From a virus, in UHGV virus genome UHGV-1333633: a stretch of 48,160 nt of DNA; one strand, given 5' to 3'. Position 1 is the first letter of the stretch. Every line of letters starts with the position of its first letter. Below, piece by piece: positions 2,918 to 48,160 of this stretch. A model generated the notes under the pieces. That model searched no databases. It saw nothing but the letters and a program-made list of their open reading frames with translations, and had not been told where the DNA came from. The position numbers and the translations under genes were made by a program.

Positions 2918-4342
2918 ATGGATTTGCGCCAGTATGAAATACTCATTGACACAAAGAATTTCATTACACAGTCGTACCCTATGCTCCGGTGCTCGTTCGA
3001 TGTGACAACATATACCGGCGACAGCCTGAGCACCTGTGAGCTTCGCTTGTGGAACCTTGCACCGACAACGAAGATTGAACCAAATCAGACCATTGTCTTT
3101 CGCGCGGGGTATCAGTCGCGCATTGGTCAGATTTTTACTGGGTTTGTCACCAACGTTTTCACCATTCGTGACGGTACCGACATTATCACCCGTGTGACGT
3201 GTCGCAGTGGTAGCAACGTGCTCGACGGCGGGACAACGAGTGCGAGTTTCGGTAAGGGGGTGACATTGTTTGACGTCTTGACCAGTCTCGCACAGGACTG
3301 GTCGAAGCCGTTATATCTTGTCAATAGTGAGGACAAATTTACCTCTATTGTCATGGCTGGCGGCTACAACGTCAGCTCTGATATCAGTAAGGAGATTGAC
3401 ATTCTGGCTAAAGCGTATGGCTTCGAATGGCACCTGTACGCTGGGCAGGTGTTTGTCGGATTTCCATCTGATGACCGTAAAGCCACCCCCATCAAAATCA
3501 GTTCTGCGACCGGGATGATTGATGCGCCAACGCTTCACGGCGGCATTGATGGTGTATTCTGTGACGTTAAGATGCGTCTTGACCCCCGTATGACACCCGC
3601 ATCGGTGCTCAATATCGAATCGAAATGGCCTAAATTCGATTTCGGAGCTGTGGAGTTCCAGACAACCGTCGACGCTAAACTGGAAGGTGACTGGAACGTT
3701 CAGACCATTCAGCATACCGGAGACACACATGGTCCCGACTGGTACACATTTGTCAAAGCTGTGCGTGCCGGGTCAATGGATACCACCACGACAAACAGTG
3801 ATGTCGGTAATCGTCTTATTTACGGGCGTGTTAGTGTGCAGGGTGAGGATGCCAGTCAGCAGCAGGATTTCCGTACCGAGGTGCGTAAACTTGGACAAAG
3901 CCTGAGCATCAGTCCTAACTGGATTATGGCTGTAATCTCTGCGGAGTCTAACTTCAATCCACAGTCAAAGAACAGCAAATCCGGCGCGGTAGGACTAATT
4001 CAGTTTACCGACACCGGATGGACAAGTGCGTTTCAGAGTAAGTACGGTCGGAATAAAAATATCATCCTGTCAATGACCGCGGCCGAACAGGTGAAAGGCC
4101 CGGTGACCGACTATCTCAACCAGTACAAAGGGCGTTACAAAACGATGGGCGATGTGTACATGGCTGTATTCAGTCCAGCATTCATCGGCAAACCTTCCTC
4201 GACCGTGATGTACTCATCACCGTCCAAAGCGTATAATCAGAACGCAGGGCTTGACACGGACCATAAAGGTTACATTACTGTCGGCGACGTGTGGCGACGT
4301 GTTGAGGAACGATTCAGACAAGGTAAGGCGTACATGTTATGA
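2918..4342 (+). CDS. tail/baseplate hub protein with C-terminal lytic transglycosylase (SLT) domain
   Basis: The C-terminus carries ISPNWIMAVISAESNFNPQSKNSKSGAVGLIQFTDTGW, a goose-type/SLT lysozyme motif with a catalytic Glu in the ES pair. The N-terminal half is of the tail hub (gpD/gp44-like) size class. Confidence 0.6.
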   Translation: MDLRQYEILIDTKNFITQSYPMLRCSFDVTTYTGDSLSTCELRLWNLAPTTKIEPNQTIVFRAGYQSRIGQIFTGFVTNVFTIRDGTDIITRVTCRSGSNVLDGGTTSASFGKGVTLFDVLTSLAQDWSKPLYLVNSEDKFTSIVMAGGYNVSSDISKEIDILAKAYGFEWHLYAGQVFVGFPSDDRKATPIKISSATGMIDAPTLHGGIDGVFCDVKMRLDPRMTPASVLNIESKWPKFDFGAVEFQTTVDAKLEGDWNVQTIQHTGDTHGPDWYTFVKAVRAGSMDTTTTNSDVGNRLIYGRVSVQGEDASQQQDFRTEVRKLGQSLSISPNWIMAVISAESNFNPQSKNSKSGAVGLIQFTDTGWTSAFQSKYGRNKNIILSMTAAEQVKGPVTDYLNQYKGRYKTMGDVYMAVFSPAFIGKPSSTVMYSSPSKAYNQNAGLDTDHKGYITVGDVWRRVEERFRQGKAYML

Positions 4343-13502: not shown

Positions 13503-13519
13503 TGCGCCGGTACTTTCTC
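13491..13519 (+). terminator. hairpin ccggcgca-gtga-tgcgccgg plus tactttctc
   Basis: 8-bp stem enclosing the stop codon of the 13221 ORF. Confidence 0.4.
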
Positions 13520-14102
13520 ACCTCAACAACGGTAAAACTAACTTTTCCACTTCTTTCACATAATATTCGTAGTCCAGACTGCCCCAGTCGAAATCCTTAG
13601 CGTCCGCACACTCTGTCACCTTCCATCCGACATACATCCCAGTTTCACGTACTGCAGCGTGTTTACTGCGACTCTTTGCGTGGATACGCTCATCCCACGG
13701 TGTACCAATGCTGTCGAGGTCTCCCGGTTGACCAGTAATCTCGCGCATTACAGCATTGTACACGTCGTCTTTGATGCCGTTCTTACGCTTCCATGTACCC
13801 GGTGCACCAGTTGGTGGCAACAGTTTGACCAGTGACCCACCATTGCGCGAGATAAACACACGCGTGGTGTTCTGCATCTCTCGTTCAGCGCCCCACTCGG
13901 GCCAACGCATTACCAGACGTGCGGAACGAGGCACTTTTGCTCGCAGCATAAAGTCAAACGGGTCACGGTGCTGCGTGATGAACGTGCGGATGTCCTCACC
14001 GTGTACGAGGGCGGCTTCGGCAGCGCGAGCAACAATCATCGCCGATGGGTCTTGGTGCCACTGGTATTTGTACTCGTAACACCCTTTTCTTTTAATTTTC
14101 AC
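13518..14102 (-). CDS. hypothetical protein carrying GTPWDERIH motif
   Basis: 194 aa. The motif DSIGTPWDERIHAKS is shared with the 18686..19542 protein. Confidence 0.5.
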   Translation of the reverse strand: MKIKRKGCYEYKYQWHQDPSAMIVARAAEAALVHGEDIRTFITQHRDPFDFMLRAKVPRSARLVMRWPEWGAEREMQNTTRVFISRNGGSLVKLLPPTGAPGTWKRKNGIKDDVYNAVMREITGQPGDLDSIGTPWDERIHAKSRSKHAAVRETGMYVGWKVTECADAKDFDWGSLDYEYYVKEVEKLVLPLLR

Positions 14103-14928
14103 GGGTTGCCTCCAGCATTTCTAAAATTCGATTGTCCCATTTCAACCATTCGGTACAACCATCAAAACCAGATAATCCAGCATTAACGAAAGAAGAATGA
14201 TATTTTCTCTCCAAGTTCCTAGCGTCGTCGACCATCATCATTCTCACGAGTTTGAATCCGAACGGGGTTGCCCTTTTCAACTGCGAGAAGCGCCTGGTGG
14301 GCCTATTGGTTATTCCCACCTTTACGAATTTCGAGTCATCACTACGGAGGAAATAGATATATCCGGGCAAGGATGGATTGAAACCGCCGTATTCGCAACA
14401 ATATGGACACCCCGTACCCTTATTGCATACGTTATCGGAGGTGGCATCCCATTCGTGACCATTACCACATCGGAATCGAGATAACTTTCGACTGCTACCA
14501 CGATAAATCAGACAACTTAGTCCTCTCGCCGCTATCCTTTCATTTATATCTTCCACCGACAATCTCACTCTCTTCGAGCAGTGAGGGCAACCTGATGAAC
14601 GCATCACACTATCGGCGGTCGTTTCCCATTCGTGACCGTTGACACAGCGGAATCGCGATTTACCCATGACACTACCCGAATACCTAATGCACAATATACT
14701 CCTAGTCGACAACCTTTTATTTATTTCTTCTAACTTAAGCTTCGCCCTACCGGCACAATGAGGGCATCCGTTACCAGACAGTACCGCATCTGCGCGGACA
14801 GACCACGAATGCCCGTGAGAGCATTTAAAATCGGATTTCCTCATTGTCGAACCGGCATAGGATATACAAATCAACCCACGTTCATGGATTCTCTCGTTGA
14901 TCGAATCGATGGTGTGTCTCATTTTCAT
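14092..14928 (-). CDS. free-standing homing-endonuclease-like protein: 3 tandem Zn-ribbon repeats + C-terminal GIY-YIG/T5orf172 domain
   Basis: Three ~50-aa repeats with CxxGHxW...GCPxC. The C-terminus PGYIYFL...KVGIT...ERKYH...GCTEWL fits T5orf172/GIY-YIG. The start ATG overlaps the polymerase stop (ATGA). Confidence 0.6.
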   Translation of the reverse strand: MKMRHTIDSINERIHERGLICISYAGSTMRKSDFKCSHGHSWSVRADAVLSGNGCPHCAGRAKLKLEEINKRLSTRSILCIRYSGSVMGKSRFRCVNGHEWETTADSVMRSSGCPHCSKRVRLSVEDINERIAARGLSCLIYRGSSRKLSRFRCGNGHEWDATSDNVCNKGTGCPYCCEYGGFNPSLPGYIYFLRSDDSKFVKVGITNRPTRRFSQLKRATPFGFKLVRMMMVDDARNLERKYHSSFVNAGLSGFDGCTEWLKWDNRILEMLEATREN

Positions 14929-16448
14929 TCTATTACCATTATATAATTGTTCACATCGCGCTGATAAAGAGACTTCACAATGTCGGTCTCCAGATTCAGC
15001 ATTGTCGTTTTTTCCCACTCTGCACAAATCGATTCGACTAAAGTTTCATATTTATTTTCATAAAAAATGACGATTCCGTCGGTATTAGTTTGGGGTACTA
15101 CTAACCCTGGTACGCGAGTCGTGAGTCGGTCTACCAACATCGCCAGACAAAGTTGCCCCGTGATGGTGATACTCAGGAGGCACTTGTGGTCGCAGAATGG
15201 GCTAAACTTGCTCCCCATGTTCCCAAAGGTAGAATTTAACGCAAGTTTCAATGTCGCGTCGACAGTTTTATCTCCCGCTCGTTTGGCATCGCGACGACGA
15301 ATGAATAGTTGTTCATATACGTCACAAAAAGTTTCACTAAGGTGTTCGGGGTAATAACGATTCTTAATTGAGATGGATGGATACATACTTGTACAGTCTT
15401 TGTTTTGCAAATTGTGTGTTTGGGTAGAATGTACAACGTAGTTCGGAATCCCACTGTGGATACCACCCAAACCAAAAGTATATTCGACGCCGTCAATAGT
15501 GGCGACCATATCATTGAAGACACCCTTCGTGGTCAGTAATTCATCCTGCTGTTTCTTCGTGAGTACAACCCCGCGAATGCGTTCCAGAATTTGATTGAAC
15601 TCCGGTCGTTCGAATTTGATATACGGAGGTATACAATCCGCAAGTGCCACACGCTCACGGATGGTTGACCGGGAGCAATCCACCCCGGCCTTTTCCAGTT
15701 CGTGAACGAATATATCTTTGCCGATTTTAGTGTCGGCGTGATTCATAAAGTTACGACCGTATTGCTTTGTTAGTTCCTCACGGAAATGAATTTTATCAAG
15801 TGAACGCACGAAGAATTTGAGTGTTTCGCGGACGTCGTGCTTGTTGTATGCGATAAGGACATCTTTCTGCGCATCGTTCAACACCATTTCGACCGGGAAT
15901 GGCAGGTCTTTTACGTTGGGGGACCGCATACCTACTTCTAACGCCTTCAGGCTGGTGCGCCGGGCTTTATTATCAAAGTGATAAATTTTGTACAGGTCAA
16001 TCTGCTCGAAAATCTGGTCGCGGTCCCATATAATTTCTGGCCACTGACCTTCGGGCTTAATCTGTGATTGCGCCTTCGCATAAATCTGTTCCAGTGTACA
16101 ACCCGGCGTATTGACCACGTAGTGTAGCACCGGATAGTCGAATGCCAGGTTATTAAATCCAATCCCACGGGCCTTACTGCGTCCCAGGTTGAACACGAAT
16201 TCGATTAATTGCGACTGCTCGTTTTTACGGTCACTGATTTCGAAGATTAACTCCATGCCCGTCGCAGCATGAATAAATGAGGCGGTAAATATGTTCTTGT
16301 ACGTCTCTAAATCATATCCCCAGTCTCGCGGGTCCAGTGGTGCAATGCTGGAGAACGCCGAATCAGCCCCACAGTGGGGGCAATTGTGGAGGTCAGCGGG
16401 ATAAGCTTTACCGCAAGTTGCATCCTCGCATTTTGATAAATAGTGCAT
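14925..16448 (-). CDS. family B DNA polymerase (miniature, 507 aa) with 3'-5' exonuclease
   Basis: Exo I WGYDLET, Exo II FNNLAFDYPVL, Exo III YNKHDVRET. Pol motif A DCTSMYPSI, motif B KLALNSTFGNMG, motif C TNTDGI. N-terminal C4 zinc ribbon CEDATCG...CPHCG. Confidence 0.75.
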   Translation of the reverse strand: MHYLSKCEDATCGKAYPADLHNCPHCGADSAFSSIAPLDPRDWGYDLETYKNIFTASFIHAATGMELIFEISDRKNEQSQLIEFVFNLGRSKARGIGFNNLAFDYPVLHYVVNTPGCTLEQIYAKAQSQIKPEGQWPEIIWDRDQIFEQIDLYKIYHFDNKARRTSLKALEVGMRSPNVKDLPFPVEMVLNDAQKDVLIAYNKHDVRETLKFFVRSLDKIHFREELTKQYGRNFMNHADTKIGKDIFVHELEKAGVDCSRSTIRERVALADCIPPYIKFERPEFNQILERIRGVVLTKKQQDELLTTKGVFNDMVATIDGVEYTFGLGGIHSGIPNYVVHSTQTHNLQNKDCTSMYPSISIKNRYYPEHLSETFCDVYEQLFIRRRDAKRAGDKTVDATLKLALNSTFGNMGSKFSPFCDHKCLLSITITGQLCLAMLVDRLTTRVPGLVVPQTNTDGIVIFYENKYETLVESICAEWEKTTMLNLETDIVKSLYQRDVNNYIMVIE

Positions 16449-27686: not shown

Positions 27687-28289
27687 TCATTTACCTCCAC
27701 AATTACGGCAGCGACCATTTGCTACATAACGTTCAGATATTTTATTGCAGTTCTTACAGGGTTCGTAAGGTATGTACCACTTCTGACCTGCCTCAATAGC
27801 TATTTGACGCGGTGTTTTCATCTTGACAGTGGTCAACGTGATGTTGCCGGTATTTAACCCCATCTCAGCCAACTGTATGGCCTGTTCCAGCATTGTCCGT
27901 TGACGGTTCATTTCCTCAATAGTTGCGTTTAATTGTTCAAGAGTGAAACGCATTGTGTCTGCATGGTTAGTGCTTTTTTGAAGCGCCTGAGAGGCTTTAG
28001 CGTCTTTACTAATCTTAGAACATATCGCGCATTTACTACCGCGATAAACGCCCGGGTGACCGCATTTTGACATGCGTTTGGTGCCGATTCTGAGGCCGTT
28101 ATTTGGGTTGTTCCATAACTGGTCCAGTAACCATTGCTCATGCTCATCGTCAGAATTGGTTCTGTTTTTGAAATGTCTCACGAAGTCCTCGTGATTGTAT
28201 CGGGCGCAAAGTGTGCAAATACCTGTGTCTTCATGAAAAGTTTTGCAATCACAATTTTCTTTAAGATGGTGCATTTGTATAAGTCCCAT
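27687..28289 (-). CDS. Cys-rich zinc-finger protein (candidate DNA-binding/late regulator)
   Basis: Several CxxC pairs (CDC, CTLC, CAIC, CKNC, CRNC). Start MGLIQMHH sits inside an operator-like palindrome. Confidence 0.45.
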   Translation of the reverse strand: MGLIQMHHLKENCDCKTFHEDTGICTLCARYNHEDFVRHFKNRTNSDDEHEQWLLDQLWNNPNNGLRIGTKRMSKCGHPGVYRGSKCAICSKISKDAKASQALQKSTNHADTMRFTLEQLNATIEEMNRQRTMLEQAIQLAEMGLNTGNITLTTVKMKTPRQIAIEAGQKWYIPYEPCKNCNKISERYVANGRCRNCGGK

Positions 28290-28316
28290 ATACTGTATAT
28301 TTAGTTTATACAGTAT
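28290..28316. promoter_or_regulatory. perfect 10-bp inverted repeat ATACTGTATA-N7-TATACAGTAT overlapping the start of the Cys-rich gene. Minus promoter TTGACG-17-GATACT just upstream.
   Basis: Read directly. Confidence 0.45.
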
Positions 28317-28351
28317 CACACGGGTTATTTGCCGCGTCAATACCTCATTTT

Positions 28352-28624
28352 ACCCCGAAAATGGTAAATCATCAGGGTGGAGAATTTACTTTCACAATCA
28401 GCAGCTTACGCGCATAACCGAAAACCCCGTACATTTTCGCTATATTCTCTCTTCTCTCTTGTTACCGTTTGTATGTTGTCTATATACATTCTTTTACTAT
28501 CTTACTACTATACTAATTATTATTTTATAAGGGTATAAGGGTAATAAGTAGTATAGTACTGAAAACTAAAGAGTTTTTCGTACCCCGATGAAGTACCCCG
28601 AACGAGTTTCAACGGGGTATGTGG
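28352..28624. repeat. 273-bp regulatory module, copy A (near-identical to 40515..40787), upstream of the terminase operon
   Basis: A few mismatches over 273 bp. Contains the AT-rich core tataagggtataagggtaataag and the hairpin taccccg-N12-cggggta (28594..28619). Confidence 0.85.
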
Positions 28625-28681: not shown

Positions 28682-28918
28682 ATGGCAATCAACCTGCACA
28701 CTGGGAAACCTGACCGGAGAAGTAAGTTTCGGAGGACTAAACCGAATCCGAAACAACGCGCATTCTGTGAACTTGTTGCCAGGGGTGAAACATATCGGGA
28801 AGCCTACAGGAAGGTGTATGGGTCCATTAGTTCGAGTGGGTTGAATACCGTACTATCCAGCCGTAGAATTAAATCATTCATCAGGACTCTCAAGGAGTGT
28901 CAACATGGCAAGGGCTAA
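28682..28918 (+). CDS. small HTH protein (terminase-small-like N-terminal motif)
   Basis: KQRAFCELVARGETYREAYRKVY resembles the Terminase_2 N-terminal helix. 78 aa. Confidence 0.4.
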   Translation: MAINLHTGKPDRRSKFRRTKPNPKQRAFCELVARGETYREAYRKVYGSISSSGLNTVLSSRRIKSFIRTLKECQHGKG

Positions 28919-39835: not shown

Positions 39836-39964
39836 ACCAATCCTCCCGGCGTAGTGACGACCGTAATACTTCATGATGACCTTGTCAGCACATAAATAAC
39901 CTTCATCCTCAACCACGATACCTCTGATAATGAAGAAGCTACGATAGTGTTTTGTTCTCATCAT
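39830..39964 (-). CDS. small ORF (44 aa), ATGA-coupled to the AP2 gene
   Basis: Below the track cutoff. MMRTKHYRSFFIIRG... Confidence 0.3.
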   Translation of the reverse strand: MMRTKHYRSFFIIRGIVVEDEGYLCADKVIMKYYGRHYAGRIGE

Positions 39965-40257
39965 GACCTCGAATATGGTTCGCGTTTTGGACCTTTCGGT
40001 ATCTCCTGCGGAGTGAATCCGCGCTCACGCCAGAAGTACCACAGTTTTCTTGCCAACAACGCGCGATGTGGAGTATTGAAACAACCGACCGTCAGCGTGA
40101 CATTCCTGTAGAAGACCACCGCCTCCCACTTGCCATACCTGTGATGAATCCCGGGAACTCGCGCGAGATGTAACTCACGCGACGCAATCCTGTCACACTT
40201 CTTACGCCATTGTTTCGTGGGGACATGACGCAGGATATCTTCAACAAGGCTTCCCAT
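39961..40257 (-). CDS. AP2-domain DNA-binding protein (HNH-endonuclease-associated type), stand-alone
   Basis: HHRYGKWEAVVFYRNVTLTVGCFNTPHRALLARKLW fits the AP2 beta-sheet/helix pattern. Confidence 0.5.
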   Translation of the reverse strand: MGSLVEDILRHVPTKQWRKKCDRIASRELHLARVPGIHHRYGKWEAVVFYRNVTLTVGCFNTPHRALLARKLWYFWRERGFTPQEIPKGPKREPYSRS

Positions 40258-40305
40258 AATTTATAAACCCTCTCTCTCTAATTCGTGTACTGAGTGTATC
40301 AATGG

Positions 40306-40321
40306 TTGACGAATCCGTCAA
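40306..40321 (-). promoter_or_regulatory. palindrome TTGACGAATCCGTCAA. Minus promoter TTGACG-17-TACACT for the AP2 gene.
   Basis: Read on the reverse complement. RBS gagagagaggg. Confidence 0.5.
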
Positions 40322-40343: not shown

Positions 40344-40500
40344 TAATTTCATTCCGATCAAAAAGTGAACAACTTTGTAGTACAATATAATTACAGTGTA
40401 CTACCGTATAATTTCATTCCGATCAAAAAGTGAACAACTTTGTAGTACAATATAATTACAGTGTACTACCGTATAATTTCATTCCGATCAAAAAGTGAAC
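40344..40500. repeat. 65-bp direct tandem repeat, 2.4 copies. Each unit carries the 8-bp inverted repeat GTAGTACA-N12-TGTACTAC and a cgTATAAT element.
   Basis: Period 65 (40344, 40409, 40474). Palindromes at 40377..40404 and 40442..40469. Confidence 0.85.
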
Positions 40501-40514
40501 GATTACCCGAAAAC

Positions 40515-40787
40515 ACCCCGAAAATGGTAAATCATCAGGGTGGAGAATTTACTTTCACAATCAGCAGCTTACGCGCATAACCGAAAACCCCGTACATTTT
40601 CGCTATATTCTCTCTTCTCTCTTGTTACCGTTTGTATGTTGTCTATATACATTCTTTTACTATCTTACTACTATACTAATTATTATTTTATAAGGGTATA
40701 AGGGTAATAAGTAGTATAGTACTGAAAGTTAAAGAGTTTTTGATACCCCGATGAAGTACCCCGAACGAGTTTTAACGGGGTGTGTGG
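40515..40787. repeat. 273-bp regulatory module, copy B, upstream of the neck/tail operon
   Basis: Near-identical to 28352..28624. Confidence 0.85.
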
Positions 40788-40836
40788 ATACTGGCGCAAC
40801 GTTGTGTGATAATGTCTTGACAAACGAGGGCACACT

Positions 40837-45435: not shown

Positions 45436-45448
45436 GGTTATTTTTAAC

Positions 45449-46165
45449 TCAAATCAAACCTTCTTCAGATAATTTTCTGACAATCCACATTTCACCTTCG
45501 GCATAGAACATAGGTTGTGAGAACCCATTCTCTGTCTCCCGCATTATCCCGTACCCCTTATCGATGAACCATTGCTGAAATACACGTCCACGCTTCACGG
45601 AGCGATTGTAGACGTCCATTGAGGTTAACTGCTTGTTTAACCATATCGCTGATTGTCCGAACTTCTGGGCGATCTGAGTGGCGTTATAGAGACCATTGCG
45701 TTCTACAATCCGGTCGTAGACGTCTGCTTTTGGTGTCATCTCCTCATTCTCTAGTGCAAGACGTTCTTTCTCTTTCTCGCTTTCCAGCAGCGCTTCAAGT
45801 GCTTGAATATAGTTTTGTGGTAGTGCGGGTGTATTCACCCGTGATTCCAGCTCTTGCCAACGCTTGATTATCTTCATTCGTAATTGAGCGTTATACCCTG
45901 ACACCAGGCAGATGGTGTTATCTTTATCCAGCCGGTACTCCCATGCGTTTGGGTTGGTGGTATCATACTGAATGCACGTAACCCCATGATTCGTAACGTA
46001 ACTCAAATTTGAGTTACGAACATAATCTTCATCGTGACCACCATGTAGAGCGCAGAGCATTGAGCGAATGTCTCTGCAAACATTGTCGTGACGCTTCTCA
46101 ACTAGCGTCGCAATCTCGCGGCTAGACATGGTTAGTTCCGATTTTGTGTTTACTAAATCGTTCAT
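45449..46165 (-). CDS. Rha-family regulatory protein with KilAC (antirepressor C-terminal) domain, paralog 1 (intact)
   Basis: N-terminus TMSSREIATLVEKRHDNV (Phage_pRha). C-terminus YNATQIAQKFGQSAIWLNKQL... (KilAC). Confidence 0.75.
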   Translation of the reverse strand: MNDLVNTKSELTMSSREIATLVEKRHDNVCRDIRSMLCALHGGHDEDYVRNSNLSYVTNHGVTCIQYDTTNPNAWEYRLDKDNTICLVSGYNAQLRMKIIKRWQELESRVNTPALPQNYIQALEALLESEKEKERLALENEEMTPKADVYDRIVERNGLYNATQIAQKFGQSAIWLNKQLTSMDVYNRSVKRGRVFQQWFIDKGYGIMRETENGFSQPMFYAEGEMWIVRKLSEEGLI

Positions 46166-46172
46166 CTCTGTT

Positions 46173-46182
46173 CCCCCCCCCC
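46173..46182. repeat. C10 homopolymer (G10 on the mRNA) between RBS and the remaining leader of Rha paralog 1
   Basis: Read directly. Absent from the leaders of the other copies. Confidence 0.9.
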
Positions 46183-46285
46183 TCTTGTTCGTGTGAGTGT
46201 AGTTTCGATAAAAATCACGACCCGTTCAAATCGATTTATTCATGGTCACGATTAACGATGTGATTGATCACAATTGACCCCTTAG

Positions 46286-46429
46286 TTATTTTCTTTTACT
46301 CCGAATGTGAAAGTCTGCTTTATCCATCATGTCTTTGCGCCAGCAAACACCGGTGCCCATATACGCCGGGTCGTCACTTTCCGCATAACCAAATTCGTTT
46401 TCATGGTATGTGCAAATCGTGTCGGTCTG
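46286..46429 (-). pseudogene. 3' fragment of the small exported-protein gene (paralog of 46709..46963)
   Basis: Translates to QTDTICTYHENEFGYAESDDPAYMGTGVCWRKDMMDKADFHIRSKRK*, about 90% identical to the C-terminus of the 46709 ORF. No N-terminus. Confidence 0.5.
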
Positions 46430-46590
46430 CCTCCGTTCGACGGCATGACCTTTTCCTCAAAAGTGAGGGAAAGGTCATGCGCCATTTTCGATATGTCGCG
46501 TCGTACATTATCGTGTTCCTTCCCTGTCAATTCCGCAATCTCACGGCTGGACATCGTTTGTACATCGCCGACAGTCATTAAGTCATTCAT
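46327..46590 (-). CDS. truncated Rha N-terminal-domain ORF (recombination remnant)
   Basis: MNDLMTVGDVQTMSSREIAELTGKEHDNVRRDISKM, then unrelated sequence. Contains the inverted repeat 46444..46479. Confidence 0.4.
   Translation of the reverse strand: MNDLMTVGDVQTMSSREIAELTGKEHDNVRRDISKMAHDLSLTFEEKVMPSNGGRPTRFAHTMKTNLVMRKVTTRRIWAPVFAGAKT
46444..46479. repeat. 16-bp-arm inverted repeat catgaccttttcctca-aaag-tgagggaaaggtcatg at the junction inside the truncated Rha ORF
   Basis: Read directly. Confidence 0.7.
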
Positions 46591-46708
46591 ATTTCGTATC
46601 TCCTCTCTTGTTCGTGTGAGTGTAGTTTCGATGAAAATCACGACCCGTTCAAATCGATTTGTTTATGATCACGATTAACGATGTAATTGATGACAATTGA
46701 CCTCTTAG

Positions 46709-46963
46709 TTATTTTCTTTTACTCCGAATGTGGAAGTCCGCTTTGTCCATCATTTCTTTACGCCAGCAAATCCCGGTACCCATATACGCCGGGTCGTCAC
46801 TTTCCGCATAACCGTATTCATTTTCATGATACGTACAAATCGTATCGGTTTGCTCATCGTAAATCTGGAATTGCTCGCTCTGAGCACTGTGGGCACCACT
46901 GCAGTAAATTGCCGCAGCCACGATAACAACCAACTGAATTTTAAATTTGTTTAACATTTTCAC
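46709..46963 (-). CDS. small exported protein (signal peptide, 4 Cys)
   Basis: MKMLNKFKIQLVVIVAAAIYCSGAHSA signal. Its N-terminal leader is paralogous to the 47750..47932 protein (MLNK...IVAAV). Confidence 0.5.
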   Translation of the reverse strand: MKMLNKFKIQLVVIVAAAIYCSGAHSAQSEQFQIYDEQTDTICTYHENEYGYAESDDPAYMGTGICWRKEMMDKADFHIRSKRK

Positions 46964-46984
46964 ATCTCCCCTGTTATTTTTAAC

Positions 46985-47674
46985 TCAAATCAAACCTTCT
47001 TCAGATAATTTTCTGACAATCCACATTTCACCTTCGGCATAGAACATAGGTTGTGAGAACCCATTCTCTGTCTCCCGCATTATCCCGTACCCCTTATCGA
47101 TGAACCACTGTTGAAATACACGTCCGCGCTTCACGGAGCGATTGTAGACGTCCATCGAGGCTAGTTGTTTGTTTAGCCATATCGCTGATTGTCCGAACTT
47201 CTGTGCGATTTGAGTGGCGTTATAGAGACCATTGCGTTCTACGATTCGGTCGTAGACGTCTGCTTTTGGTGCTGCTATCGATAGTTTCTCCTGCGCCAAA
47301 AGCTTCTGTTCGTACTCGGTAGCCCATGCTCTCGCGGCTTCTGCTGGATTTGTGAAGTCTGGTAGTGTCGGTTTGTTGGCGTTCTCAAGTTCTTGCCAAC
47401 GGTTAATCAACTTCTGACGCAAGGGAATGTTATAGCCAGTCATTAACAGTAGTGTTTGATTCTTGGTTAGCAGATACTCGGATGTATACCCTCTATTATC
47501 TGTAAGTGACTGAAATTCCTCATGGTCCAAATTTGGACCATCTTTTAACTGCTCGATAATTGTGCGAATATCGCGAATAATGTGTTTATGTTCCTTCCCA
47601 GTCAATTCCGCAATCTCACGGCTGGACATCGTTTGTACATCGCCGACAGTCATTAAGCCATTCATATCTCGCAT
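46985..47674 (-). CDS. Rha-family / KilAC antirepressor-like protein, paralog 2 (intact)
   Basis: MSSREIAELTGKEHKHIIRDIR N-terminus. C-terminal 100 aa identical to paralog 1. Confidence 0.75.
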   Translation of the reverse strand: MRDMNGLMTVGDVQTMSSREIAELTGKEHKHIIRDIRTIIEQLKDGPNLDHEEFQSLTDNRGYTSEYLLTKNQTLLLMTGYNIPLRQKLINRWQELENANKPTLPDFTNPAEAARAWATEYEQKLLAQEKLSIAAPKADVYDRIVERNGLYNATQIAQKFGQSAIWLNKQLASMDVYNRSVKRGRVFQQWFIDKGYGIMRETENGFSQPMFYAEGEMWIVRKLSEEGLI

Positions 47675-47749
47675 CTCCTCTCTCTCGTTTGCGTGAGTGT
47701 GGTTTGTTTATGGTCACGATGATGACTGACTAGATTTTGAACTCACAAA

Positions 47750-47932
47750 TCATTTTGTCAGCATCCTTTTGAGTTTCATTGCGCACAGGTAGAAGAAGTA
47801 GAGACCTGGTAGAGCCAGAATCATCGGCACAATCTCCCCATTTTTCTCGTGTTCCAGACCCACTGCAATCATGGATGCGGCCACAGCTGCGACAATTAAG
47901 AAACATACCACTGTCATGATTTTGTTTAACAT
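47750..47932 (-). CDS. small membrane protein (2 TM), paralogous leader to 46709 protein
   Basis: MLNKIMTVVCFLIVAAVAASMIAVG...PMILALPGLYFFYLCAM. Confidence 0.45.
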   Translation of the reverse strand: MLNKIMTVVCFLIVAAVAASMIAVGLEHEKNGEIVPMILALPGLYFFYLCAMKLKRMLTK

Positions 47933-47977
47933 TTTCGTGTCCTCTCTGTTGTTTTGTTGATGTAACTGTAACTCGCA

Positions 47978-47993
47978 TTGACGACGCCGTCAA
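47978..47993 (-). promoter_or_regulatory. palindrome TTGACGACGCCGTCAA. Minus promoter TTGACG-17-TACAGT for the 47932 gene.
   Basis: Read on the reverse complement. RBS agagagg. Confidence 0.5.
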
Positions 47994-47996
47994 CAC

Positions 47997-48160
47997 TTAA
48001 ATCAAACCTTCTTCGGATAATTTTCTGACAATCCACATTTCACCTTCGGCATAGAACATAGGTTGTGAGAACCCATTCTCTGTCTCCCGCATTATCCCGT
48101 ACCCCTTATCGATGAACCACTGTTGAAATACACGTCCGCGCTTCACGGAGCGATTGTAGA
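47997..48160 (-). CDS. 3' end of Rha/KilAC paralog 3. The gene continues across the window junction into 1..421.
   Basis: Identical to 46985..47148. Stop at 47997..47999. The window end joins the window start in perfect register with paralog 2. Confidence 0.55.
   Translation of the reverse strand, partial: YNRSVKRGRVFQQWFIDKGYGIMRETENGFSQPMFYAEGEMWIVRKLSEEGLI

Follow-up and report, generated by a model that had tools for sequence, protein, structure and literature searches.

A repeat search of the window, by which we mean the entire 48,160-nt stretch of DNA analyzed here, identified a direct repeat of 273 nt with 98% identity at positions 28352–28624 (copy A) and 40515–40787 (copy B), 12163 bp apart. 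Comparison with annotated relatives showed that copy A precedes the operon for the small terminase, large terminase, and portal proteins, and that copy B precedes the operon for the neck, sheath, and tube proteins. Each copy is situated in a divergent intergenic region, and together they bracket a 12-kb packaging-and-head cassette; the ATG codons that follow, at 28682 for copy A and 40837 for copy B, are 58 and 50 nt past the module end, respectively. When the two copies were aligned with their flanking DNA, the limits of the shared sequence were abrupt on both sides. The first ~226 nt are identical as read in this assembly (repeats of this kind break short-read assemblies), and the six mismatches are all confined to the final ~47 nt. 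The near-identical 273-bp duplication claimed in the first-pass annotation was therefore borne out by both the repeat search and the alignment, and the CT-rich tract, tandem core, direct TACCCCG duplication, and inverted partner described there were all present, at exact coordinates (Table 1).

The window is the circularly closed genome of a Jedunavirus, a JD001-like Klebsiella myovirus. Closure was concluded from repeats spanning 47995–48160 and 1–162 and from a Rha/KilAC gene that crosses the junction. That gene is one of three paralogous minus-strand Rha/KilAC (anti-repressor-like) genes at 45437–48160 plus 1–688, which share DNA repeats of 166–330 nt. Also on the minus strand, the DNA polymerase gene (13518–16448) appears to be split by an HNH endonuclease gene insertion (ORFs 13518–14102, 14092–15027, and 14925–16448) and is annotated likewise in BUCT791.

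Within the late region, leftward clusters of small genes have near-consensus TTGACG-17/18 promoters at 28340, 32781, 34019, 34734, and 40321 (minus strand), and rightward structural operons have extended −10 promoters that lack a −35 element. Two leftward promoters of the TTGACG-17 form have −35 hexamers that abut the modules; for the gene to the left of copy A (A-left), the hexamer abuts the first module box. A palindrome, ATACTGTATA...TATACAGTAT, at 28283–28308 covers the −10/start region of the A-left promoter and looks like an operator. At copy B, a tandem repeat lies to the left of the module; its 65-bp unit contains the inverted repeat GTAGTAC-N14-GTACTAC and the hexamer TATAAT, and the repeat is also present in JD001 and BUCT791.

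Table 1. Positions of sequence features in and around the two module copies
Feature	Position	Strand	Sequence and remarks
Leftward sigma70-type promoter	28312..28340	−	TTGACG-17-GATACT with TG; drives the A-left gene (27687–28274)
Upstream (U) box cluster and inverted pair	28341..28379	+	TACCTCA 28341–47, TACCCCG 28351–57, CAGGGTG 28373–79
U IHF-consensus-like site	28396..28408	+	AATCAGCAGCTTA, 12/13 to WATCAANNNNTTR
U double box	28415..28429	+	TAACCGAAAACCCCG; almost invariant in the genus
Polypyrimidine (CT) tract	28440..28461	+	Composition kept, sequence not
AT-rich spacer	28462..28525		~75% A+T; replaceable
Core	28526..28545	+	TATAAGGGTATAAGGGTAAT, tandem reverse-orientation boxes; minus strand reads TACCCTTATACCCTTA; imperfect inverted arms at 28501–28515 and 28546–28559
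D boxes	28581..28619	+	TACCCCG 28581–87, TACCCCG 28594–600, inverted CGGGGTA 28613–19 (starts 12 nt past the second direct box)
Copy-A-specific promoter segment	28620..28661	+	TGTGG (shared module end); extended −10 TGATAAAAT 28642–50; second −10-like TGTGGCATTAG 28651–61; RBS, then ATG 28682
Leftward promoter of B-left gene (39961–40257)	40293..40321	−	TTGACG-17-TACACT with TG
65-bp tandem repeat	40344..40500	+	2.4 copies; between the leftward promoter and module B, outside the shared module
Module copy B	40515..40787	+	Boxes 40515–20, 40536–42, 40587–92
Copy B IHF-like site	40559–71		
Copy B CT tract	40603–24		
Copy B core	40689–708		TATAAGGGTATAAGGGTAAT
Copy B D boxes	40744–50, 40757–63, 40776–82		First two direct; third inverted, CGGGGTG
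Copy-B-specific promoter segment	40788..40836	+	Extended −10 TGTGATAAT 40805–13; RBS GAGGG; ATG 40837 (neck gene)

Distribution of the module

The module with its flanks matched 71 GenBank phage records, nearly all of them Klebsiella Jedunavirus genomes (~48 kb), plus Escherichia ZCEC13, Pectobacterium PEAT2, and 'Acinetobacter' LAPP1. All 71 had at least two matching places; the apparent third places in some records were copies cut by the record ends. Because every record had two or more places, the flanks of the copies are unique, and the copies in the window differ at six positions, we concluded that the duplication is the product of neither chance nor assembly. The assembly duplication artefact that the first-pass annotation had allowed for is thus ruled out.

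More distant modules were recovered by protein-guided and pattern-guided scans of IMG/VR. Diverged modules lie upstream of terS in IMG/VR relatives whose terminase small subunit is ~55–70% identical, and at least six distant IMG/VR contigs carry two copies of the core DNA pattern on the same contig, the second always before the neck gene. No module was found elsewhere in IMG/VR outside this phage group, and none similar was found in 5,426 Escherichia coli genomes or 72,556 plasmids. In the window itself, neither the module nor a box cluster was found before any other operon or in any other intergenic region. The literature on Jedunavirus, JD001, KpV52, FZ14, IME346, HHU1, and MMNM makes no mention of the module, its promoters, or its transcripts, and no transcriptomic paper on Jedunavirus was found. 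No published description of the module was found.

Many IMG/VR contigs of the phage group end within the module (L010, L011, L014, L020, L022, L023, L025, L026, L028, L033, L034, and others), and several of these are ~34–36 kb in length, as is the stretch that runs from copy B around the circle to copy A. Short-read assembly is therefore systematically interrupted by the repeat in these phages.

Motif content of the module

Distant A and B copies have nine ordered elements, and little else, in common. These are, from left to right, an inverted box pair; an IHF-consensus site; a tandem double box; a polypyrimidine tract; 60–100 bp of AT-rich DNA; a reverse tandem double box, GGGTA-N3-GGGTAA, followed by (GTA)n; a second IHF-consensus site, 33–35 nt further on from the reverse double box; two direct boxes and one inverted box; and a copy-specific extended −10 element, RBS, and start codon. 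In most lineages the inverted box pair is at about −170 to −190 from the core, and in distant relatives the U double box has the form TACCC-N2-3-TACCCCG. Each module contains ~8 ACCC-core boxes, in both tandem and inverted arrangement, with the consensus wTACCCC(G/A)ww; the base at box position 7 is G or A in 76% and T in 16% of the boxes, and the 7-mer TACCYY(G/A) is 13-fold enriched in modules versus the genome.

Perfect matches to the IHF consensus WATCAANNNNTTR numbered 12 in 28 diverse modules versus 0.25 expected, and they occur at two fixed positions. The IHF-like U site recurs at −120 to −170 across lineages and is perfect in several relatives. In the window the U site matches at 12 of 13 positions in both copies, and the downstream (D) site is degenerate, as it is throughout the window's clade. 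The order of motifs, the IHF-consensus sites, and the phasing described below persist where sequence identity is ~50%. Judged from these comparisons, what is conserved across the family is a grammar of motifs, not a sequence. The idea of a large functional element, put forward in the first-pass annotation, is supported by the retention of both the grammar and the duplication in phages whose terminase small subunit is only 55–70% identical.

Several other interpretations of motifs in the module were considered and rejected. For the TGGCA/TGGCGC motifs, a sigma54 reading did not fit in spacing or in the −12 element. A leader peptide read from CCCCGATG is broken in frame by 1-nt indels in the type-3 B copies. 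A 53-codon ORF with a GTG start (28377–28538) is not conserved, having an in-frame TAG in the A copies of IME346 and JD001 (CAATCATAGG) and being broken also by spacer indels of 8 and 13 nt. Long-range RNA pairing of the U double box with the core showed no covariation, and a tRNA scan gave nothing.

Coupling of the module to the late promoters

An extended −10 element was scored when TG was present one base before a −10 hexamer with A at its second and T at its sixth position, a −35 element being dispensable. By this definition both copies in the window have an extended −10 element immediately after the shared module (Table 1), and 62 of the 69 unique modules have its equivalent. The copy-specific segments carrying the TGnTAnnnT element are kept among orthologues even when the first gene of the operon is different, as in all A orthologues, and TGTGATAAT is retained even in the distant B copy L130. 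Extended −10 promoters are likewise present at other structural operons of the window; for example, TGTGATAAT occurs before 32784 as well.

In copy B, the DNA between the extended −10 and the ATG contains the ribosome-binding region of the neck gene, GAGGG in the window. MEW1 (MT894004; L183) has a run of ten G in this region, at 361–370 of that sequence, equivalent to about 40823–40829 of the window; the intergenic poly-G length variant reported for MMNM/MEW1 at position 3958 (PMC11633184) lies in this run.

In both window copies, 22 nt separate the end of the last box (CGGGGTA) from the TG of the extended −10. Among the 62 modules, which contain ~20 different spacers, this distance was 11, 22–25, 32–33, or 42 nt, with none between. 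These discrete classes indicate that at least four independent indels preserved the helical phase. We relied on the classes because a Rayleigh test on the spacings is dominated by the 22–24 class and singles out no period. If the start site is ~7 nt past the −10 hexamer, the center of the last box is at about −41, which is the position where class II-type activators replace the −35 contact. Taken together, the phasing, the conserved extended −10 elements, and the abutting promoters argue for a promoter-coupled function of the module as duplex DNA.

Two distant B copies have a different layout, in which the neck gene directly follows the D-side IHF-like site or the last box. In L138 (706–980) the neck gene starts 45 nt after the core; in L164 the RBS is in the loop between the inverted boxes and the ATG follows or overlaps the 3′ arm. 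Neither has room for an extended −10 element, and a second promoter must therefore be present there, within or upstream of the core. The core is thus a possible location of a second promoter.

On these results, the 273-bp repeat is best read as two copies of one long, conserved control region, placed directly upstream of two late-operon promoters in this phage and in all its relatives.

Concerted evolution of the two copies

The A and B copies of nine genomes were aligned, and identity was taken over the module columns. In each of the nine, paralogy between A and B extends over the entire intergenic region. Within a genome, identity between A and B was highest in the window (98%), JD001 (96%), and KpV52 (95%); it was 89% in BUCT791, 87% in cmc20193, 77% in HF1013, and 73% in IME346, and only 54% in PEAT2 and 53% in LAPP1. 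Among the B copies, those of PEAT2, LAPP1, IME346, and HF1013 group together as orthologues, with 87–96% identity. Those of the window and BUCT791 instead cluster with the A copies of the window and IME346 (93–100%), and in JD001, KpV52, and cmc20193, A and B alike fall with the A copy of HF1013; the B copies of both sets thus group with A-type sequences. An IMG/VR contig with an A flank nearly identical to that of the window has a different module type in both of its copies, and three unrelated versions of the CT/AT-rich middle (spacer) exist within the genus.

Because B copies group with A-type sequences in several lineages, these groupings indicate that A-type sequence overwrote the B copy at least three times independently, that is, by concerted evolution. 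The route of replacement could have been intragenomic gene conversion or ectopic exchange between co-infecting phages. This outcome agrees with the concerted evolution suggested in the first-pass annotation, the copies clustering by genome and not by position in several lineages. On the same comparative grounds, the 98% identity in the window reflects recent non-reciprocal copying of an A-type module over B. As the product of recent homogenization, that identity implies no functional requirement on every base. Its earlier reading as a sign of constraint over all 273 bp does not hold, since A and B in other genomes are 53–90% identical and the CT/AT-rich middle is freely replaced.

Candidate regulators and resemblance to NarL sites

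Scans of ~30 ORFs of the window against Pfam, PHROGs, and NCBIfam revealed no LuxR/GerE-type or sigma-like protein. The only candidates were a TetR-type HTH protein (105 aa), the Rha/Ant paralogues, and a wHTH on a 380-aa phosphoesterase. The A-left gene, which encodes 195 aa on the minus strand, is present divergently next to copy A in all relatives, including the distant ones. Its protein family comprises only 21 homologue clusters among 5.8 billion proteins. The protein has conserved zinc-type Cys clusters, CGHPGVR..C..C and EPC..C....ERYVANGRCRNCG, and a central coiled coil; the predicted model was confident (pLDDT 84), and it matched no known fold beyond coiled coils and no recognizable family. 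By its position only, the A-left protein is a candidate regulator of the module.

The boxes resemble the binding sites of NarL, whose consensus is TACYYMT and for which an engineered site reads TACCCCTAAAGGGGTA (PMC4549865, PMC4886647). In NarL-dependent promoters, one site covers the −35 region (at −38 to −49 in yeaR and napF), and at narG further NarL sites at about −89 and −195 act with an IHF bend (PMC4549865, PMC4886647). The module shares with the NarL/NarP promoters narG, yeaR, and napF heptamers that begin with TACCC, in single, tandem, and inverted arrangement, as well as a −35-region site, far-upstream sites, and, on the phage side as consensus matches, putative IHF sites; in JD001-type cores the minus strand reads TACCCCT twice. 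The inverted pairs of the phage are, however, 8–36 nt apart (12 in the window), whereas the high-affinity 7-2-7 NarL arrangement has a spacing of 2. The boxes do not fit NarL/NarP sites: TACYYMT is 4.9-fold enriched but is the minority form, and the 7-2-7 arrangement is absent. No GerE-type protein was found in the phage ORFs scanned, and dependence on nitrate-activated NarL is unlikely because the phages grow in ordinary aerobic culture.

Discussion

We propose that the module is an activator- and IHF-dependent upstream control region of two late promoters that have no −35 element, located between divergent early and late promoters; on the sequence evidence, we would put the chance that this proposal is correct at about even. 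Of the three candidates offered in the first-pass annotation, the late-activator binding platform best fits the phased last box and the IHF-consensus sites at fixed positions. The wTACCCC(G/A) boxes would be recognized by a DNA-binding protein with sequence specificity, most likely one encoded by the phage. The promoter-proximal box at about −41 would replace the missing −35 contact, and host RNA polymerase would thereby be recruited or activated at the extended −10. The remaining boxes, near −60 and −73, near −120 in the core, and between −230 and −300 in the upstream set, could join the complex, such that the boxes, host IHF, and the flexible AT-rich spacer would fold ~270 bp into a phased nucleoprotein complex. 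This complex would raise late transcription, and it may also shut the adjacent leftward early promoter. Against this proposal are the degenerate D IHF site in the window's clade and the pairing within the hairpin, which would be explained more simply by RNA or a single-strand hairpin. The B copies of L138 and L164, with no room for the extended −10, also count against it, as does the failure to find a LuxR/GerE-type or other obvious regulator among the ~30 ORFs scanned. In addition, replication origins just as typically combine boxes and AT-rich DNA with IHF sites.

The last point leads to the alternative that the module is a two-site replication origin, in which the boxes would be iterons for a phage initiator, the AT-rich DNA an unwinding element, and IHF the bending protein; the second copy would act like P4 crr or SPP1 oriR, and the adjacent promoters would provide transcriptional activation. 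The module has the layout of an iteron origin, repeated boxes flanking an AT-rich region, but this layout is not specific to origins. Box arrays in inverted orientation surround a 60–100-bp AT-rich stretch that keeps its composition and not its sequence, the module contains two IHF-consensus sites and lies between divergent promoters, and strand composition switches at the core. Duplicated origin-like sites have precedents in P4 ori/crr, SPP1 oriL/oriR, and HSV oriS, and those of P4 and SPP1, like the module, are two distant arrays of initiator boxes beside AT-rich DNA in one phage genome. A 785-aa primase in the window weakly matches the C-terminal part of the P4-family primases, the family to which the primase-helicase of P4 belongs. 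Unlike the P4 and SPP1 origins, however, the module is without exception placed directly against the start of the same two late operons and oriented as they are, and the helical phasing of its last box with the extended −10 is a property of promoters. No initiator was found, and the cumulative GC-skew minimum is at ~19–20 kb, in the divergent replication-gene region and not at the modules; this is a weak objection, and GC skew in the window follows gene orientation. The phasing, the co-orientation, and the skew profile count against the module being an origin only, and we regard the origin reading as unlikely. A structured 5′ leader RNA, transcribed from the core, would place the TACCCCG hairpin in antitermination, processing, stability, or translation, with the two copies analogous to nutL/nutR or putL/putR. 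The inverted repeat is kept in nearly all lineages, with loops of 8–36 nt and stems extended by lineage-specific complementary bases, and it includes one compensated mismatch path (T-A to A.A to A-T) and ~6 independent G.T pairs on the plus strand versus 1–2 A.C. The layout of L164 and L138 also implies a start site upstream of the hairpin; because of that layout and the hairpin pairing, the core or its vicinity may hold a second promoter, and the hairpin may be transcribed. Nevertheless, no Rfam 15 family matched at the gathering score (at E ≤ 10 only chance-level matches appeared), and folding was ordinary, with z-scores of −1.5 and +0.8; the structured RNA considered in the first-pass annotation thus gained support neither from Rfam nor from folding energy. 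Downstream of the hairpin comes TGTGG instead of a U-run, and the GC-rich hairpin plus U-run of an intrinsic terminator or attenuator is absent in both modules. Moreover, boxes of this kind are found unpaired and in tandem as well, those ~200 bp upstream form an inverted pair without strand bias (8 versus 7), and the ~11-bp periodicity to the −10 would be unexpected of a leader. The inverted repeat of the stem-loop reported earlier is present, but two protein-binding boxes in inverted orientation, upstream of the promoter, are the better reading of it, and a leader RNA as the function of the module seems to us quite improbable.

Packaging offers a further alternative, in which the terminase small subunit would bind the boxes and IHF would bend the DNA, the second copy serving as a pseudo-pac site or synapsis partner. 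Copy A is directly upstream of the terminase small-subunit operon in every genome, and the copies bracket the 12-kb packaging and head cassette. In lambda cosB and P1 pac, repeated terminase-binding boxes lie on both sides of an IHF site near the small terminase gene, much as boxes here lie on both sides of an IHF-like site beside terS; unlike those systems, the module has a second copy far from the terminase genes, and that copy precedes neck and tail genes yet is equally conserved. IME346 shows no fixed termini (PMC9007800), which also argues against a packaging site; for the genus, reports of defined termini were likewise lacking. Neither the promoter phasing nor the co-orientation with both operons would be explained; we therefore give this possibility very little weight. 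Finally, the module might have no function of its own, being a repeat kept by recombination (a cassette-exchange linker), a decayed mobile element, or an assembly artefact. Its ends are inverted boxes, TACCCCG...CGGGGTA, around an AT-rich interior, as in a MITE; mosaic boundaries occur near module B, IME346 being 93% identical before and 85% after; and assemblies break at the repeat. Yet there are always two copies at the same two syntenic sites, with none in E. coli genomes or plasmids, which led us to reject a MITE-like mobile element. The duplication is present in 71 independently sequenced phages, and the motif order, IHF-consensus sites, and phasing are kept at ~50% identity. The comparative data largely refute this last reading, and we consider it scarcely credible.

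A control region of the proposed kind, activator- and IHF-dependent, has an analogy in the NarL-dependent promoters described above and partial counterparts in other phages. The early/late switch of phi29 (proteins p4 and p6; promoters A2c, A2b, and A3) uses divergent promoters, regulator sites, and DNA bending. Like the module, it is a compact intergenic region with divergent early and late promoters, where bending represses in one direction and activates in the other; unlike the module, it is one region and not two paralogous ones, IHF is not involved, and the sequences and proteins are unrelated. The late promoters of P2/P4 (Ogr/Delta) and Mu (C, Mor) have a poor −35 and a phage activator bound just upstream. 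They resemble the module in that the same type of site is repeated before several late operons. They differ in having a single short dyad per promoter, with no IHF sites or AT-rich spacer, whereas here there is an array of ~270 bp, carried by only two late operons.

A bolder form of the proposal, which we offer as a speculation with the chances well against it, is that a box-binding factor and IHF fold the ~270 bp into a "late enhanceosome" in helical phase, by which both divergent early/late promoter regions would be switched together. The factor might be the A-left protein, recurrent gene conversion might keep the copies matched to it, and the complex might double as a transcription-coupled origin.

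Jedunaviruses are widely isolated therapeutic Klebsiella phages, and nothing has been published on the timing of their gene expression. The map of boxes, IHF-like sites, promoters, and the spacing rule provides a concrete scheme, open to testing, for how the packaging and tail genes are controlled, and it singles out the conserved A-left protein as a candidate regulator. In practical terms, the repeat breaks or can homogenize short-read assemblies, and it is a likely point of recombination when head and tail cassettes are engineered. The module is also a clean natural example of the concerted evolution of non-coding DNA in a virus genome.
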